The notes below the pieces were generated by a model. The model was not told where the DNA came from. It searched no databases and worked only from the letters and a program-made list of their open reading frames with translations. DNA of 33,704 nt from a virus: UHGV virus genome UHGV-0014912, one strand, 5' to 3'. Positions 3,805 through 26,213 of the stretch are shown in pieces. The first letter of the stretch is position 1; each line of letters begins with the position of its first letter. Position numbers and translations under genes: made by a program.

Positions 3805-4339
3805 TACCCGCAACACGCTTAACTGTTTTTAAAATATCGTCAGAGATTTGATTCCATGAACCCAGAGTTTTTCTTCTGTGTTGATTTTTCTTGAATACAG
3901 CAATTAAACGACGGTCTTGCTTTTTAACGTTAGTTTTAATGAGGATCGTTCGAGTTACGCCATCTTTTTTCTGCTTGACAGCTTCAAGATTATTTCTTGA
4001 TTTCAAGTTAGGAATGTTACCGAATTTGTTTTTTGAACCTCTTACGCCAGTTGGAACAAACTTGTTAATTCCTTTGTTATCATCAATCAACGGAGCAAGA
4101 TAATCAGCCTGCTTGTCTTTGATGTATATCCTATTTCGTGACCCGTTCTGATCGTATCTGAAACTGAAACCTACAGCGTTCTTAGTGAAATTAACTGGTC
4201 CATCGACTCGTCTATTGATTTTTCTTTGCAACTCAACAGAAGCAAGTTTAGACGCTTTGGTCACTTTCTTACTGAACACGTCAGATTCTTTGATTCGCCA
4301 TTTTTCAAGGTCTTTCATGACATCTTTTGCTTTTGCCAT
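3797..4339 (-). CDS. Hypothetical basic phage protein
   Basis: 180 aa, Lys/Arg-rich; start overlaps the stop of the upstream ORF (ATGA). Confidence 0.35.
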   Translation of the reverse strand: MAKAKDVMKDLEKWRIKESDVFSKKVTKASKLASVELQRKINRRVDGPVNFTKNAVGFSFRYDQNGSRNRIYIKDKQADYLAPLIDDNKGINKFVPTGVRGSKNKFGNIPNLKSRNNLEAVKQKKDGVTRTILIKTNVKKQDRRLIAVFKKNQHRRKTLGSWNQISDDILKTVKRVAGTK

Positions 4340-4536
4340 TAGTTAGCTCCTGACATCAGAAGCGTCCCAAATGTTTTTATCTGTTCTTCGCTGATAAGAA
4401 TCATCTTAGGTGCATTAATATCGAAAGCTTGAAGAACAGGAACAGCAACAGTGTTATAAGTTATAGTAACGAGAAATAGAACAATAAGATAATCTTTAGC
4501 GTGTTTTGCCATTGCTTGGAGATATTTCATTTTCAT
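4339..4536 (-). CDS. Small membrane protein (possible holin-like); true start may be internal
   Basis: 65 aa with one hydrophobic helix (LIVLFLVTITYNTVAVPVL); overlaps the 3' end of the endonuclease VII gene. Confidence 0.25.
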   Translation of the reverse strand: MKMKYLQAMAKHAKDYLIVLFLVTITYNTVAVPVLQAFDINAPKMILISEEQIKTFGTLLMSGAN

Positions 4537-4972
4537 ATTTCACCTTTATTTGGTTTGAATAGACTTTTTCAAGCTCCTTTTTCGTTTTGAGATTTGAACC
4601 TGTGATAGCTTTCATCTCAGAAAGATTTTTTCGAGAGAACGCTTTCTTTAAATCAGAAATAAGTTGTGGATGAGTAGGATTGTCTGAGTAGTCTTTTTCA
4701 AGATACTTAACAAGATTCTTTAAAAACTCTATGTAGTCGATTTTCCCATCGAGACCTGAACGTTTAAACTGATGTTTTATTCTGCCCTCGAGGACGTTTG
4801 CTTGAGCGATTAATAATCCTCTGCATCTGCCTGCGTTAGAGCCGGTTAAAATATGGTCGTGGTCAAGATGGGCTTTATTAACTTCATGAATCTTTATGCC
4901 AGTTAAAGCACAAAGACCTTTTTGCTTTTGAAAGAGTTCTTGCTTATAAATCGGAATCTCTTTTCTTTTCAT
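4496..4972 (-). CDS. Endonuclease VII-like Holliday junction resolvase (T4 gp49 family)
   Basis: Motif block HLDHDHILTGSNAGRCRGLLIAQANVLEGRIKHQFKRSGLDGKIDYIEFL matches my recollection of T4 endonuclease VII (HLDHDH...VRGLL...EG..KH.F.RSGL). Confidence 0.7.
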   Translation of the reverse strand: MKRKEIPIYKQELFQKQKGLCALTGIKIHEVNKAHLDHDHILTGSNAGRCRGLLIAQANVLEGRIKHQFKRSGLDGKIDYIEFLKNLVKYLEKDYSDNPTHPQLISDLKKAFSRKNLSEMKAITGSNLKTKKELEKVYSNQIKVKYENEISPSNGKTR

Positions 4973-21882: not shown

Positions 21883-22091
21883 AGTTTTCCTTCATTTAAT
21901 TTTCTGCAACTGTCAATATCGAGTTTAGCTGTTTCTGGATTATACTCTGTGAGATTACAGATAACACCTTGCTGTTTGAATGTTTCAACGTTGATATTAC
22001 TGTTAATACATCCTATCAGAGAAAAAGCTCCGACAATCGTCAGAGCCATGATAATAGGTTTAAAAAGTTGTTTTGCTTGTTCGTTATTCAT
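21879..22091 (-). CDS. Small outer-membrane-type lipoprotein (candidate superinfection-exclusion, Cor/Llp-like)
   Basis: 70 aa; signal peptide with lipobox LIGC (PIIMALTIVGAFSLIGC); mature part about 45 aa; TAATG-coupled to the upstream HEG. Confidence 0.4.
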   Translation of the reverse strand: MNNEQAKQLFKPIIMALTIVGAFSLIGCINSNINVETFKQQGVICNLTEYNPETAKLDIDSCRKLNEGKL

Positions 22092-22699
22092 TACGCTGCC
22101 TCTCTTAAACGACGTGCTTGTTGTGCTAGTTTCATTTTCTCGATAGTTTCAGCAGAACGAGTTCCGATAACACGACCTTTATTTGCTTTGCCGATTTTCT
22201 TTTTTGTTTCTTCTGACTGAACAGAACCGGTTTTTGCTTTTGAGATTTTTCTACGTGTCTCTAGTGAAACAACATGACCAGTCATGCTATCAGAGATTTT
22301 CTTGTTTCTTTCTTTAATTTGTTGTTCTGTCATGGATTTAAAAACGTTGCCTCCCGCTTGTCCTGATGAAATATTTAATAAGTTAGCTTGCTGTTGTCTT
22401 GCGTGTTTAATGCAAGCAGTTTCGAAGTCATACGCTTCCTGTTCGTCTGTGAAAGTCTTTAGAACAACTTTAAACACAACGTCTGTCGGTTTCATTTCTG
22501 CTAGTTTCTCACGAACTAAACGACCGCTGCCTATATAAAGCATGTCAGGCTGTTCATTGTAAGATTGTTTGCCGTAATAAACGTAACTGACATCATTGAT
22601 GCGAAAAACGGTTTTATAAACTGCGTAAGCTTTGATTTCAGCGTTACGGATATCAGAACGGGTTTTGTAAGTTACGTTGTTAATAGTGCGCTTGTGCAT
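22091..22699 (-). CDS. GIY-YIG homing endonuclease with NUMOD3 repeats (Seg / I-TevI-like)
   Basis: 202 aa; N-terminal GIY-YIG-like AVYKTVFRINDVSYVYYGKQ; three C-terminal NUMOD3-like repeats (GHVVSLETRRKISKAKTG, SVQSEETKKKIGKANKG, RVIGTRSAETIEKMKLAQ). Confidence 0.7.
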   Translation of the reverse strand: MHKRTINNVTYKTRSDIRNAEIKAYAVYKTVFRINDVSYVYYGKQSYNEQPDMLYIGSGRLVREKLAEMKPTDVVFKVVLKTFTDEQEAYDFETACIKHARQQQANLLNISSGQAGGNVFKSMTEQQIKERNKKISDSMTGHVVSLETRRKISKAKTGSVQSEETKKKIGKANKGRVIGTRSAETIEKMKLAQQARRLREAA

Positions 22700-23117
22700 T
22701 TGAGTTTCCTTAAAGTTAAAAATAAAAGTGAAAGAGATTTACATTCAGTTGTTTTTCTGAATTACACTTGTATTTAGTAACTAGGTTTATCTATAACCTG
22801 ATAAAAACAGGGAATAGCACTAAATGATCAAGGAACACTCCTATTAAATTAACGTTTGTTAATAAATCCTAGGACGCATCAGGTTGAAACCAGATAGCAA
22901 TATGAACAGGAGTAACATCAAGGTCGGTTAATGCAGCAGGATAGATCCTAGAAAGAACCTGATAACAGCTTGAACATAACGAGAAAGGGCGCTAGCCCGT
23001 CGAAAGCTCGCTTGCGAGATTGAGACTAACTAACGAATTCAGATTTAATTAGCGATCATTAAGTTTATTAGATATCCAGTGATCAGTATAATGCAGTTAA
23101 CCAGTAATCAATATTAT

Positions 23118-23337
23118 CCAGATCTGAAAACAAGATAGGCGCAGCCGCGCGAAGCGCTAATAATATTATCTAGAAAAAACATTATTAACTTAGTCAAACT
23201 TGATTATCTGGATTACTGAGTGATCATAACAATGTTGACTTAGTGTTATCTGTCGCGCTTACGCGCTAATGTTATTAATTGGGGCTAACGCCCTCTCGTC
23301 GAGCAAGCTCTCCTCGCTATCTGGTTTTCAGATCTGG
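23118..23337. repeat. 21-bp imperfect inverted repeat pair (23118..23138 and 23317..23337) bracketing a ~180 bp segment with iteron-like TATC(C/T)(A/T)G copies
   Basis: CCAGATCTGAAAACAAGATAG versus CTATCTGGTTTTCAGATCTGG (two mismatches); six TATCCAG / TATCTGG / TATCTAG / TATCTGT motifs between 23073 and 23324. Confidence 0.5.
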
Positions 23338-23429
23338 TTCTTTCCTTGTTTTTAAAACCTTCCATATCATCTTTATCCAATTGTTCTTATAGGGAGATTT
23401 TTCTCAGTATCCATGCGCTTCTCCGACTT

Positions 23430-23471
23430 GCATCGATGCGCTATCGATGCGTTTTGCTGTACATCGATGCA
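23430..23471. promoter_or_regulatory. Three tandem operator-like palindromes (GCATCGATGC core)
   Basis: GCATCGATGC at 23430..23439 (perfect 10-bp palindrome) with related copies ending at 23450 and 23470, about 90-130 bp upstream of the 23562 gene. Confidence 0.45.
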
Positions 23472-23529
23472 CTTTGTTCCGATTGTTTTTGATCATTTTG
23501 TGCTGAGATAAGTTTACGACTTCTCTCCT

Positions 23530-23537
23530 TATAAATA
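23530..23537 (+). promoter_or_regulatory. TATAAATA element (T4-late-promoter-like) upstream of the 23562..24008 gene
   Basis: Exact TATAAATA 25 nt upstream of the ATG, followed by AAGGAG RBS. Confidence 0.35.
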
Positions 23538-23561
23538 TTCTTTGAACAAAGGAGAATCCTA

Positions 23562-24008
23562 ATGAGCTACTATTTTTGTAACGTCGGTGAAGTTTTCGAC
23601 GGAGAAATTTCTATTCTTCGAAAGCGTGATATTTTCACAAACACGATTATCGGAGATGTATCAACCCAAAAAGAAAAAATGAAAAAATGTTCACCTAGTA
23701 TTCAGAGACATTTAGAAAAAAGTCAGAATCTTGATATCGGTTGCGTCTATGTTTTAAAGCTTGAGAACGAAAAATGGTATGTTGGATATACTAAAAACAT
23801 ATTAGGAAGAATTAAAGAACATGCTATGGGTATTGGTGCTGAATGGACAAAAACTAACAAACCTATTCAACTTGTTAATTTTTTCATCGGAGATCATAAA
23901 ATTGAGAGAAGATTTACTGAAGAATTAATGATTAAGTTCGGCTGGCAAAATGTTAGAGGTGCAAGATGGACTGCTAACGAGATTCTTTGTCCTATGATGT
24001 TCAGATAA
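23562..24008 (+). CDS. GIY-YIG nuclease-domain protein with a ~60 aa N-terminal extension
   Basis: 148 aa; GCVYVLKLENEKWYVGYTKNILGRIKEH fits the GIY-(~10)-YVG pattern of small GIY-YIG proteins. Confidence 0.55.
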   Translation: MSYYFCNVGEVFDGEISILRKRDIFTNTIIGDVSTQKEKMKKCSPSIQRHLEKSQNLDIGCVYVLKLENEKWYVGYTKNILGRIKEHAMGIGAEWTKTNKPIQLVNFFIGDHKIERRFTEELMIKFGWQNVRGARWTANEILCPMMFR

Positions 24009-24182
24009 TTTTTCGAGAGTTTGTTTACTATCCCGGTGATGGGTATAAATACTAGTATAAGTTAAAGATTCGCACTGATTGAGAGATTTCTTCCTCGTTT
24101 GTTTACTCTCAGTCATTACGATTATAAAATAACTATGAAAGCAAGTTCATTTAGAAAATCCAAATAAAATTCCTTAAAGTTT

Positions 24183-24208
24183 GAAGCACTCTTCGGAGTG
24201 CTCTTTTT
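24183..24208 (+). terminator. Strong intrinsic terminator
   Basis: AGCACTC-TTCG-GAGTGCT stem-loop followed by CTTTTTTC. Confidence 0.7.
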
Positions 24209-24394
24209 TCAACATTACAAAAAAGGCAACCCATGAAATTTATTCCAAATAAGTTCGAAATTGAATCTCGATTAGATGCTGGTGAAACTTTTCAGCAGAT
24301 TGCAGAATCAAAGAAAATGAATAAAGCAACGCTGTATAACGCTTGCAAAAAACGCAACATCAGAACGACTAAACAGAAATAAAAGGAAAACAAA

Positions 24395-25312
24395 ATGAAA
24401 TTTTCAGTATTTGATAACTTAAACGGAACCACTAACGTTAGCTTGAATAAAAAAATTGTTAAGACTAACGAAATGACCAACAACAGAAACAAACTGAAAG
24501 CATTTGTCGGAAGTTTTACCGATATTCATCGCAACGTTAGAGCAAAAATGCTAACTAAAATTGAAAATGCTTTGACTGTAAAAGATATGCGTAACTTTGA
24601 AATCGGTATGTCCGAACTGAATGATAAACCTGCTATCGTTGCTTATACAACTGATAAAGCTGTTATCGTTTGTTCAGAAGCAAATCGTTGGAAAGCTCTT
24701 GGTTCAGACCTGACTTTAGTTCATGCGAAAGAATCCCAAAACTTTGTTCAGCAATATATTGGTGATTTTATCGAGATTAAAGAAGAAATTGAATTTCCGA
24801 CTGAACAGAAAGTTGACGTTATTTCTAACGAGTTGGAAGAATTGAGAAAAGAAATTGAGAAAATGAAAAAAGAAAAGGCAGAACATAAAAAACTTATCTC
24901 TGCCTATGCGAAAAATTATAAGGGTGATGAATTATCTTTTGATGAAGACCTGACGATTATCAAACATCAGAACAGTATTAAATCAGAAGTTGGCGCTTCC
25001 GAAATTTCTAACGAATCAACTGTATTTAGTGTAACAGAAACAGCAGAAAATTTAAACGACGACCTGATCGTTTCTATCGATCAATCAAACAAGGAAAATA
25101 AAATGCCTTTATATGATTATTCCTGCGAATGCGGAAACTATTTCGAAAAAACAAGAAAAATCTCTGAACGTTCTAGCGCTGAATGTCCTGAATGCCATAA
25201 AGAAGCAAAACAGCAACTGACAGCACCAGCCGGAATTCAAAACGGTTATTACGAACAAGGCAGAATGTTCATTAACAGAAACAAACAAACGTTTAAAACT
25301 GCTACACGATAA
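24395..25312 (+). CDS. Coiled-coil protein with a C-terminal FmdB-type zinc-ribbon domain
   Basis: 305 aa; C-terminal MPLYDYSCECGNYFEKTRKISERSSAECPECHK (CxC...CxxC); internal AAGGAAA RBS before that Met suggests possible separate expression of the zinc-ribbon part. Confidence 0.4.
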   Translation: MKFSVFDNLNGTTNVSLNKKIVKTNEMTNNRNKLKAFVGSFTDIHRNVRAKMLTKIENALTVKDMRNFEIGMSELNDKPAIVAYTTDKAVIVCSEANRWKALGSDLTLVHAKESQNFVQQYIGDFIEIKEEIEFPTEQKVDVISNELEELRKEIEKMKKEKAEHKKLISAYAKNYKGDELSFDEDLTIIKHQNSIKSEVGASEISNESTVFSVTETAENLNDDLIVSIDQSNKENKMPLYDYSCECGNYFEKTRKISERSSAECPECHKEAKQQLTAPAGIQNGYYEQGRMFINRNKQTFKTATR

Positions 25313-25330
25313 AGGAGCATCGCGCTCCTT
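25312..25330. terminator. Bidirectional terminator between convergent genes
   Basis: GGAGC-ATCGC-GCTCC stem-loop flanked by AAA and TTAATTAATTT. Confidence 0.45.
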
Positions 25331-25877
25331 AATTAATTTCTATCATGTCTTGTGATTGTTCAGATTCTTTTTCGTCTTCTGATTCGTCCTGTTCGTTCGG
25401 ATCTTCGTTTAGTTCCTGTTCGAACAGTTCAACACCGTTTAGAGTATCGTCGATAATTCTTTTCAGTGTTTCTTTCACCGTCTGAACATCAGAAGCTGAT
25501 TCCAAAATTTCGATAGCATGTTTATTCGGTATTAATCGCATAACAGATTTTAAGTCAGCACAAAAACGGTTCAACTCAGATTGAACATATTCAACTGGAA
25601 TTAATTGCTCCGATTTTTCTTGCGCTGTGTATTGAGCCAAGTCTGCTTTTGCTTTCTGCTCGCGGAGTTTTTCTTTCTCCATTTCATCGCGAACGGACAT
25701 ATTACGCATCGGGTTAATTTTGTTCTCAATTATCCAACGAGTGCCTTCGTCTTCTGGAATACCAGAGGGATTATCTGAATACGGAAGTCCTTCTGCACGC
25801 CAGCTCTTGATAGCGTTCAGGGTATAACCATAACGACGCGCCATATCAGTCATTGAAATATATGTTTTTCTTGCCAT
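25329..25877 (-). CDS. Putative terminase small subunit (lambda Nu1-like winged HTH)
   Basis: 182 aa (lambda Nu1 is 181 aa); N-terminal block SMTDMARRYGYTLNAIKSWRAEGLPY resembles Nu1 QLADIFGASIRTIQNWQEQGMPV; acidic C-terminus; a MerR-like regulator is the alternative. Confidence 0.45.
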   Translation of the reverse strand: MARKTYISMTDMARRYGYTLNAIKSWRAEGLPYSDNPSGIPEDEGTRWIIENKINPMRNMSVRDEMEKEKLREQKAKADLAQYTAQEKSEQLIPVEYVQSELNRFCADLKSVMRLIPNKHAIEILESASDVQTVKETLKRIIDDTLNGVELFEQELNEDPNEQDESEDEKESEQSQDMIEIN

Positions 25878-26213
25878 TGTTTTTCTCCAATCGTAGAGGG
25901 AATAAGGGTTTAACTGTATTTATCAGTCAGCGTCAGGGAATCCTCCGGGATATTTATGTCAACTGGAATGAACTGCACTGTAAATAATCCCTCACAGGTG
26001 AAATTTAAATCGAGCGCTTGAAACATCTCGGTGTTTCAGAAGTCCCAGAGTAACTATTATTTTTTGTTAGAGGGGGGCAGAAGATGAGTCGTTAAAACTT
26101 ATTTAAGCAATATCATTAATGATTTATATTTGGCTGCGTTTTAGGCTAATCAGCAGCCAAATTTTTAATTGTCGATGAAACGCCAGTATCGCTAAAAATA
26201 GAGCTATATAAAA

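Follow-up and report, generated by a model that had tools for sequence, protein, structure and literature searches.

What is the function of a stretch of phage DNA to which no gene can be assigned? The question is raised by positions 22700-23561 of the virus genome UHGV-0014912, whose 33,704 nucleotides are referred to here as the window. Almost the whole of the window is an E. coli prophage of about 32 kb lying beside ybiT, and the gap at 22700-23561 separates two divergent operons. A first-pass annotation, made from the sequence alone, had hedged between an iteron-type replication origin, an operator cluster and a structured non-coding RNA. That the region is a conserved non-coding element with a function, rather than a decayed gene, is certain, and it does combine origin-like with operator-like features; the DnaA box and the TATC "iterons" on which the hedge partly relied did not hold up, no Rep-type initiator gene was recognised among the ORFs scanned, and no Rfam family matched. 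Our preferred reading, which we hold tentatively and at somewhat less than an even chance, is that the region may be a transcription-activated, largely host-dependent replication origin joined to an early promoter/operator region.

The gap is devoid of credible open reading frames (ORFs), as had been stated. The longest in 22700-23561 is 48 amino acids, and the variants of the region differ by insertions and deletions (indels) that are not multiples of three. Two small ORFs, at 23413-23511 and 23285-23380, were considered as genes and rejected because neither frame nor length is conserved; the frame opening with the ATG at 23413 encodes 32 amino acids in the window and 14 in the related loci L002 and L036. 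The region is present at about 74% identity in 7 complete E. coli genomes, with no annotation beneath it, and in 6 IMG/VR contigs. Further variants, from Citrobacter, Enterobacter, Kluyvera-like and additional E. coli sequences, were recovered by searching with a 305-amino-acid protein encoded downstream of the gap and then looking up the contigs. Every relative that was fetched, whether from E. coli, Citrobacter, Enterobacter or a Kluyvera-type contig, retains an ORF-free gap of 1.0-1.2 kb at the same place, directly upstream of a small helix-turn-helix (HTH) gene and lacking called genes. About 12 distinct versions, with identities of 55-88%, make up this set of variants, which is small and related by descent. 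In three viral contigs whose terminases are 73-82% identical (L018, L019 and L026) the gaps measure 1.1-1.5 kb and cannot be aligned with the others; their layout is the same.

Central to the region is a rightward promoter, P1 (23042-23096, plus strand), which the first-pass annotation had missed, along with a fourfold repeat and a non-coding continuation farther right that are described below. P1 consists of a conserved upstream block, GATTTAATTAGCGATCATTAAG, a -35 element TTTATT (23064-23069), a spacer of 17 nt that is constant in length and free in sequence, and a -10 element TATAAT (23087-23092) followed by GCAG. Across the family the -35 element is TTTAT(T/C), and TATAATGC(A/T) is found in 12 of the 13 distinct variants. 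P1 was the sole promoter-like site common to all six variants scanned; the other promoter calls were all weak. Its predicted start lies near 23100, and since no conserved ORF or ribosome-binding site follows, the predicted transcript would be untranslated.

P1 is followed by a large imperfect palindrome spanning 23118-23337. Its arms, L (23118-23138) and R (23317-23337), are the 21-nt inverted repeat reported earlier; they are 95% complementary with 178 nt between them, and each contains one of the only two copies of CAGATCTG in the 33.7-kb window. Inward of the L arm are GGCGCAGCC (23138-23146) and hairpin A, GCGCGAAGCGC (23147-23157), to which hairpin B or D across the centre is exactly complementary. 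The centre itself, at about 23160-23250, is AT-rich and variable through indels, while the dyad flanking it is retained through differing sequences. To its right lie hairpin B, GCGCTTACGCGC (23255-23266), hairpin C (23281-23293), a further segment at 23295-23316, the R arm and then a T-rich run (23338-23353). The GC-rich hairpin islands that had been noticed are present as GGGCGCTAGCCC at 22987-22998 and GGGGCTAACGCCC at 23281-23293. In the window the palindrome folds at -77 kcal/mol, with z-scores against shuffled sequences of -5.3 on the plus strand and -4.9 on the minus strand. The long-range helix that closes it is part of the minimum-energy fold in all 11 variants folded (z-scores from -1.7 to -7.6, no consistent strand preference), and complementarity between the arms is strong in 5 of the 11. 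Comparison of the window with L039 shows an inserted C in the L arm that is matched by an A-to-G change in the R arm. Because the arms are complementary in every variant by means of different sequences, the palindrome is a selected feature; because it folds alike on both strands, it does not by itself demonstrate an RNA. A single large RNA domain closed by the L-R helix was considered and rejected, given the strong complementarity in 5 of 11 variants and the lack of strand bias.

A second feature of the core is a set of small hairpins of the form GCG-N1-2-AGC, whose strand switches at the centre of the palindrome. Left of the centre the family contains 45 on the plus strand and none on the minus strand; to the right there are 41 on the minus strand and 4 on the plus strand, the four exceptions being sites in L011 and L036 that were misplaced when our script set the centre at a duplicated hairpin. 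In the remaining 32 kb of the window the background is 10 and 9 such motifs. The window itself has three on the plus strand (22989, 23139 and 23149) and two on the minus strand (23257 and 23284). The ends of the loops are fixed as G...A and their middles are free (GAA, GTA, GCA, GCTA, GCCA, GTCA, GTAA, GATA, GTTA, GACA). About half of the GCGNAGC units have a GC stem of only 2 bp, and the tetraloops are mostly not GNRA, the third position being a pyrimidine in 6 of 7 types. The motif is exactly that of the 'mini-hairpin DNA' defined as GCGNAGC / GCGNNAGC, which is known from the primase sites of phages G4, St-1 and alpha3, from RSF1010 ssiA and from the hairpin promoters of N4 (PMC13037366). 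An RNA shares the sequence of the displaced DNA strand, and the polarity therefore does not distinguish RNA hairpins from hairpins in displaced-strand DNA. The same core is rich in GATC: summed over 13 variants, the site occurs at 13.3 per kb in the 300-bp core versus 1.56 per kb in flanking phage DNA, an 8.5-fold enrichment, and one GATC just upstream of the P1 -35 element is nearly invariant.

Left of P1 lies a structured element that we call module U (22987-23026, plus strand), composed of two hairpins. The first, H1, is GGGC-GCTA-GCCC in the window; in the family it has a GC stem of 3-5 bp and a GNNA, GAA or CTTG loop. The second, H2, is a rod made up of an outer stem GT(T)C/GA(A)C, a tandem GA/GA loop, an inner stem of 3-4 bp and a tip hairpin, CTCG-CTTG-CGAG in the window and GCGAAGC in most variants. 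The outer stem changes in step (GTC/GAC as in the window, GTTC/GAAC, GTTTC/GAAAC), and the inner stem is found in at least five complementary versions: AGAT/ATCT, AGTC/GACT, AAC/GTT, AA/TT and CGA/TTG, the last with a G-T wobble. Module U was detected in every variant examined for it and is duplicated in L011, L036 and L037. With RNA parameters, 12 of 13 versions take this same fold as their minimum-energy structure, and the plus strand is more stable than the minus strand in 13 of 13, by a mean of 3.8 kcal/mol; in the window the values are -16.5 (z-score -2.5) on the plus strand and -12.1 on the minus strand. Since the MAFFT alignment was out of structural register here, the units were parsed by hand and compared with chimeras, and five of the versions so parsed outscored every 5'/3' chimera. 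A pattern scan of 2.9 million viral contigs for module U found one family member and six chance matches in GC-rich, coding-looking sequence.

Farther left, an alignment of 13 variants and a promoter scan define a boundary element (22738-22785, plus strand) that we regard as a candidate rightward promoter, P_L. It comprises TTTACA (TTGACA in 11 relatives), a 19-nt spacer and TACACT within an almost invariant block, CTGAATTACACTTGTATTTAGTAACTAGG; the spacer contains a dyad, TTCAG..CTGAA in the window and often TTCAGA..TCTGAA in the variants. With its weak -10 element and 19-bp spacer, P_L may be a promoter with MerR-like spacing. Between P_L and module U is a purine-rich stretch of variable sequence (22790-22986, plus strand) with conserved islands, GCATCAGGTT at 22876-22885 and, in relatives, GGAGAAGCGAGGAGGGA. 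The AT skew changes from +0.24 in 22801-23200 to -0.29 in 23201-23600.

To the right of the palindrome, the most conserved block of the region, CCTTCCATATCATCTTTATCCAATTGTTCTTATAGGGAGATTTTT (23358-23402), contains stretches that are invariant in the alignments and has a folding z-score of about 0; it is probably a site for a protein or promoter acting at the DNA level. A small RNA running from 23372 to a hairpin ending at 23457 was rejected, its fold being no better than that of shuffled sequences. The block is followed by a repeat cluster of iteron or operator type (23409-23473) with four copies of ATCGATGC. The units are ATCCATGCGCT, GCATCGATGC (23430-23439), TATCGATGCG (23442-23451) and the palindrome GTACATCGATGCAC (23459-23472); they are 8-11 bp long, partly palindromic and spaced by 23, 11 and 20 bp. 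The first two ATCGATGC-type sites also make a hairpin, followed by GTTTTG (23429-23457). The type of repeat at this position varies among relatives, being TGCGATGCA in L023 and L040, GGGCACC in L011, GAAATTGCAT in L018, TTGAGTGTCA in L019 and AACGTTGCACA in L026. The non-coding sequence continues at 24009-24232 (plus strand), beyond an inserted gene, with two tandem rightward promoters sharing the -35 element GTTTGTTTAC, PA at about 24019-24052 and PB at 24102-24130. Between PB and the ribosome-binding site of the HTH gene is a terminator-like hairpin with a T-run (24185-24209), whose stem covaries (AGCACTC-TTCG-GAGTGCT versus AGCGCTC-GCAA-GAGCGCT). This suggests that the rightward operon may be controlled by attenuation or antitermination.

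The phage shows no other means of starting its replication that we could recognise. Among the ORFs scanned against Pfam and PHROGs there was no family match to a replication initiator, helicase, primase or polymerase; the matches were to structural genes, the small and large terminase subunits, endonuclease VII, homing endonucleases, a TIR protein, lysozyme and a serine recombinase. The PGAP annotation of one related prophage likewise lists no replication genes. The origin reading is favoured because neither a replication gene nor a second candidate origin could be recognised; because the layout joins a promoter, an AT-rich and GATC-rich variable centre, dyad hairpins and nearby variant-specific repeats; because the hairpin motif is known from priming sites; because bidirectional initiation is consistent with the change of strand that the hairpins make at the centre; and because the Ceduovirus origins offer a tested precedent (PMC7150918).

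On this reading, the core at about 23040-23345 would be the phage replication origin. P1 would fire into the GATC-rich, AT-rich and easily melted centre flanked by the dyad of GC hairpins. Transcription may open the duplex, or leave an RNA-DNA hybrid (R-loop), or both, so that the stable G(N)NA-loop hairpins would be exposed on the sense (displaced) strand on both sides. The host replication machinery, for example PriA, DnaB and primase, could then be recruited in the manner of ColE1 and of the G4 and ssi sites. Recruitment of the host through exposed hairpins would explain how the phage replicates with no recognisable initiator, helicase, primase or polymerase of its own. The right part (23358-23561 and 24009-24232) would be an early rightward promoter/operator cluster, in which the variant-specific repeats (ATCGATGC in the window) might bind a phage-specific protein, possibly the 305-amino-acid product, and so set immunity or origin specificity.

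Several points weigh against an origin. The whole analysis is computational. The region has no sequence match in the phage database or the plasmid collection searched, and no similarity in sequence to a phage or plasmid origin. No significant or conserved DnaA box was found in it: a near-DnaA box, TTATCCAGA, does exist and is the sole one-mismatch box of the region, one base from its reported position, at 23114-23122, yet the window contains 11 one-mismatch boxes against 8.3 +/- 3 expected, as chance would give, and in most relatives this box is replaced by a different sequence. The motif TATC(C/T)(A/T)G, for which six copies had been claimed, is locally enriched: counting both strands, 22937-23173 holds 5 exact matches, of which 4 fall within 23073-23173, and the window as a whole has 26. 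These are not the conserved repeats, the real repeat family being ATCGATGC. The ATCGATGC repeats are themselves short, irregularly spaced and about 200 bp from the AT-rich centre, and for that reason operators fit them as well as iterons do. One variant, L037, lacks P1. The polarity of the hairpins is equally expected from two convergent RNAs; the leftward promoter that the right half would then use is weak, its candidate -10 element being TATAAG, which lacks the near-invariant final T. The AlphaFold model of the 305-amino-acid protein, with a mean predicted local distance difference test score (pLDDT) of 64, gave an uninformative best match in the Protein Data Bank by Foldseek (E 0.018).

The main rival reading, possible though doubtful, is that the region instead encodes one or more structured regulatory non-coding RNAs and has no part in replication. 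The candidates would be a P1 transcript of about 235-360 nt folding as a long rod and a leader containing module U transcribed from the left-boundary promoter; their roles could be processive antitermination of the HK022 put type, which would let transcription pass the terminator-like hairpin ahead of the HTH gene, or an RNA-based or antisense immunity like those of P4 CI, P1 c4 and pCF10. The invariance of P1 and the absence of an ORF behind it suit such RNAs, as does the folding of the P1 transcript region far beyond shuffled sequences in all variants. This folding is much the same on both strands, as a DNA-level dyad would give, and the arm complementarity is strong in just 5 of 11 variants. 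The non-GNRA loops and 2-bp stems are a signature of DNA mini-hairpins and by our own reasoning should be less stable in RNA. Module U also suits such RNAs: its stems covary, G-T wobbles are tolerated on the plus strand alone, the same RNA fold recurs in 12 of 13 versions and the plus strand is always the more stable; against this, it lies upstream of P1 and would depend on a weak, putative promoter. As for ends, a T-rich run follows the R arm (23338-23353) and the 23429-23457 hairpin with its T-run scores as a terminator, yet no clear terminator is common to all variants. The conserved terminator-like hairpin between PB and the HTH gene would make antitermination useful; no CI-type repressor was recognised, and the HTH of the GntR-like protein is invariant across the variants. 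Rfam offers no help, with no match at either the gathering or the E-value threshold: the Rfam 15 covariance search returned 0 hits at the gathering threshold for the window and 6 related loci, and CRISPR-DR37, snoZ118 and GAIT, which appeared in an E<=10 search, are chance matches. The region contains no tRNA or tmRNA.

That the region is only a transcriptional switch, containing promoters and operators for the GntR-like, HTH and 305-amino-acid regulators and neither an origin nor a functional RNA, seems decidedly unlikely. Its hairpins and palindromes would then be sites bound as duplex DNA, anchors for looping, or insulators that keep apart the operons running left and right. The flanking operons are indeed divergent, several promoter-like boxes are conserved, GTGCATCGATGCAC and CAGATCTG are palindromic sites, and TTTTCAGATCTGG behaves like an operator in that its location shifts from variant to variant among the P1 spacer, the R arm and the +20 region; the conserved block at 23358-23402, with no RNA structure, would also be at home in a switch. 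The switch regions of temperate phages measure 100-300 bp, however, and this one measures 1 kb. Moreover, more than 85 hairpin motifs, whose loops are free in the middle and fixed as G...A at the ends, keep to a strict polarity that would not be expected of double-stranded sites, the compensatory changes and one-strand wobble pairs of module U indicate a single-stranded fold, and the phage would be left with no candidate origin. It is highly improbable that the region serves in packaging, as a cos site, or in some other recombination, for instance as an invertible segment. The region does lie between the genes for the small (terS) and large (terL) terminase subunits, its GC-rich palindromes and repeated sites could resemble the R sites of cosB, 21-bp inverted repeats flank 178 bp, and the small HTH protein is similar to the HTH of an invertase (phrog_125, E 0.002). 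The N-terminal DNA-binding domain of TerS is nearly invariant, however, while the repeats vary; the region is 1.8 kb from terS, and a far better cos candidate lies directly upstream of terS at about 26010-26213. All variants are collinear, the central segment being inverted in no relative, and there is no invertase catalytic domain, just the 49-amino-acid HTH protein; an invertible DNA switch was rejected since inverted variants were not seen.

The origin reading can also be judged by comparison with known systems. In ColE1, a promoter-driven, untranslated and structured transcript runs into the origin, which uses host functions only and has hairpin signals on single strands. The region shares with it a predicted untranslated, structured transcript directed toward the putative origin, hairpin signals on single strands and, as proposed here, the use of host functions. 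It differs in having no match to RNAI, to any other Rfam family or to a plasmid, in the lack of a convincing antisense promoter about 100 nt downstream and in its layout as a dyad around an AT-rich centre. The sites of G4 and St-1 and the ssiA and ssiB sites of RSF1010 present exactly the same motif class (GCGAAGC, GCGTAGC, GCGTTAGC, GCGATAGC and others), and in RSF1010 oriV the signals also lie on opposite strands around a centre, beside repeats and an AT-rich stretch. Each element of the present family has 5-13 copies, however, rather than one or two, and no gene for a RepB'-like primase or helicase was seen among the ORFs scanned; the phage genome is double-stranded, so that single strands would have to arise by melting or transcription. 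Theta origins with iterons (lambda ori, P1 oriR, and oriV of F, RK2 and pSC101) resemble the region in their element-specific repeats and AT-rich DNA, and oriC and P1 oriR also have a GATC cluster. Such origins have three or more regularly spaced repeats of 17-22 bp, bound by a cognate initiator; the units of the present region are shorter, at 8-11 bp, and lack regular phasing, no Rep gene was recognised among the ORFs scanned and the DnaA box is at chance level. Module U, for its part, is small, strand-specific and made of two stem-loops following a putative early promoter and preceding a terminator-like hairpin, much like HK022 put and lambda nut; it has no sequence or Rfam relation to them and precedes P1, and the hairpins beyond the centre face inward and not toward the flanking operon.

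A close parallel in organisation is the origin of the lactococcal phage c2 and other Ceduovirus phages. These origins (PMC7150918) are non-coding, lie between divergent gene blocks and are flanked by two early promoters; a non-coding transcript (PE1-T) is needed for replication, the sequence differs between types, and the c2 origin replicates plasmids in the absence of phage proteins. Both are non-coding regions of several hundred bp with early promoters in the same direction and no ribosome-binding site or ORF after the first, and in both the position is conserved and the sequence strongly type-specific (PMC7150918). The two have no sequence similarity; the present host is Gram-negative, the phage is temperate and the region is larger, and the polar GC mini-hairpins, the dyad and the GATC cluster do not figure in the passages on c2 that were consulted (PMC7150918). 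The activity of the c2 origin has been demonstrated (PMC7150918); that of the present region is predicted.

If the variant-specific repeats are bound by a phage protein, the product of the 305-amino-acid gene (24395-25312) would be the leading candidate. The N-terminal 235 or so amino acids of this downstream protein, which measures 200-330 amino acids in the family, track the repeat type: identities of 54-95% accompany ATCGATGC, 49-52% accompany TGCGATGCA and 32% (L011) accompanies GGGCACC, and the proteins with no detectable N-terminal similarity (L018, L019 and L026) accompany other repeats. This is a correlation, for which overall divergence is a confounder. In this protein a beta-rich N-terminal domain (pLDDT 75-88), for which no structural match was found, is combined with a long coiled coil, the conserved motif KGEKLSFDEEL and a zinc ribbon of the FmdB type; several relatives encode the zinc ribbon as a separate gene. 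Three other proteins were rejected as repeat binders: TerS, since its DNA-binding domain is almost invariant while the repeats differ; the GntR-like protein, since its winged helix is almost invariant across repeat types; and the 49-amino-acid HTH protein, since its three types do not match the repeat type.

A bolder form of the origin reading, which we regard as unlikely, is an initiator-free phage origin of new design. Transcription would enter the AT-rich centre with its many Dam sites, and arrays of very stable GCG(N)NAGC mini-hairpins on the displaced sense strand, together with the module U rod, would hold an R-loop or bubble open and give the host's primase or restart primosome a point of entry. 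Because the hairpins change strand at the centre, replication would proceed in both directions, and the repeats with the 305-amino-acid protein might gate the process as a layer of immunity or specificity. Should the region prove to be an origin, it would show a 32-kb temperate enterobacterial phage replicating with host proteins only, and would provide a compact host-dependent replicon and a natural setting for the 'mini-hairpin DNA' so far found mainly in single-stranded DNA phages and IncQ plasmids. Should it encode RNAs instead, module U and the P1 transcript would be undescribed structured RNAs in a well-studied host. Under either reading, attempts to knock out or control these prophages would most naturally be directed at the 1-kb gap.

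The surroundings of the region are those of a little-known phage group. Among the terminases of 50,697 phage records the nearest shows 51% identity and the others about 30% or below; the prophages form an uncharacterised family of about 32-36 kb in enterobacteria, with no cultured relative. Pattern scans of genome representatives gave 0 matches for a first pattern and 5 unrelated chance matches for a second, and a metagenome scan returned two already known variants only. The prophage ends at ybiT, from 31962, where the GC content jumps to 52% and identity to E. coli is 99.8%. Genes for tail, head, portal and gpA-type terminase occupy 301-20630 on the minus strand. Within the tail block is a gene for endonuclease VII, similar to T4 gp49 (4496-4972, minus strand; phrog_423, E 7e-36), which could be a hint that replication or recombination passes through branched intermediates ahead of packaging.

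Between the structural genes and the gap, the right arm contains a GntR-like gene, small ORFs and then a NUMOD3/GIY-YIG-like gene (22091-22699, minus strand), and beyond the gap a GIY-YIG gene (23562-24008, plus strand), so that the gap is bounded as had been described. The NUMOD3/GIY-YIG-like gene, of about 200 amino acids, borders the gap in all variants except L002, which is disrupted by IS5; its product may be a domesticated phage DNA-binding or nicking protein rather than that of a mobile gene. The GIY-YIG gene (Pfam GIY-YIG, E 1.6e-7) is preceded by a promoter-like box (GTTTAC..TATAAAT) and Shine-Dalgarno sequence of its own (23512-23561, plus strand). It is an insertion and not ancestral, because relatives, which lack 23506-24004, join about 23490 straight to 24005-24166. 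In L035 an unrelated ORF of 222 amino acids (3933-4601) occupies the same insertion point, between the repeats and PA; the junction of the repeats and PA looks like an insertion hot spot for selfish genes.

After the GIY-YIG gene come the 49-amino-acid HTH gene (24233-24382), the 305-amino-acid coiled-coil/zinc-ribbon gene and terS, a Nu1-type small terminase gene (25329-25877, minus strand). The terS and terL genes are 4.7 kb apart with the whole control region between them, an unusual arrangement. The intergenic sequence at 25878-26213, especially at about 26010-26213, is some 95% conserved among variants that are 30-40% divergent elsewhere and includes a G-run of variable length (AGAGGGGG..GCGCAG); the block at about 26010-26213 is probably the cos site. 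Beyond terS are genes for a TIR protein, lysozyme, two tail proteins and a large serine recombinase (30417-31922). Variable cargo lies beside the control region: in the window, 26214-27409 encodes the TIR protein (CAP12/Pycsar-type) and a YuaX-like protein, and elsewhere in the family the cargo includes a retron Ec67 reverse transcriptase, Hcp with a Tlde1-domain protein and YadA-anchor proteins (L002 7911-9680; L039 1342-2231; left arms of L037, L038 and L040). The arms around the control region are a site for defence and virulence cargo. Finally, the three viral contigs with non-alignable gaps share an element of about 190 nt following a TATAAT-like box on the minus strand (L018 6240-6470, L019 5400-5640 and L026 6240-6440), which has no Rfam match and no counterpart in the window. 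Its stems show compensatory changes, with AAGGG..CCCTT kept and CCGGCTTCGGCCGG replacing or replaced by CCGGACTTCGGTCCGG, and it is a candidate for an undescribed structured RNA.

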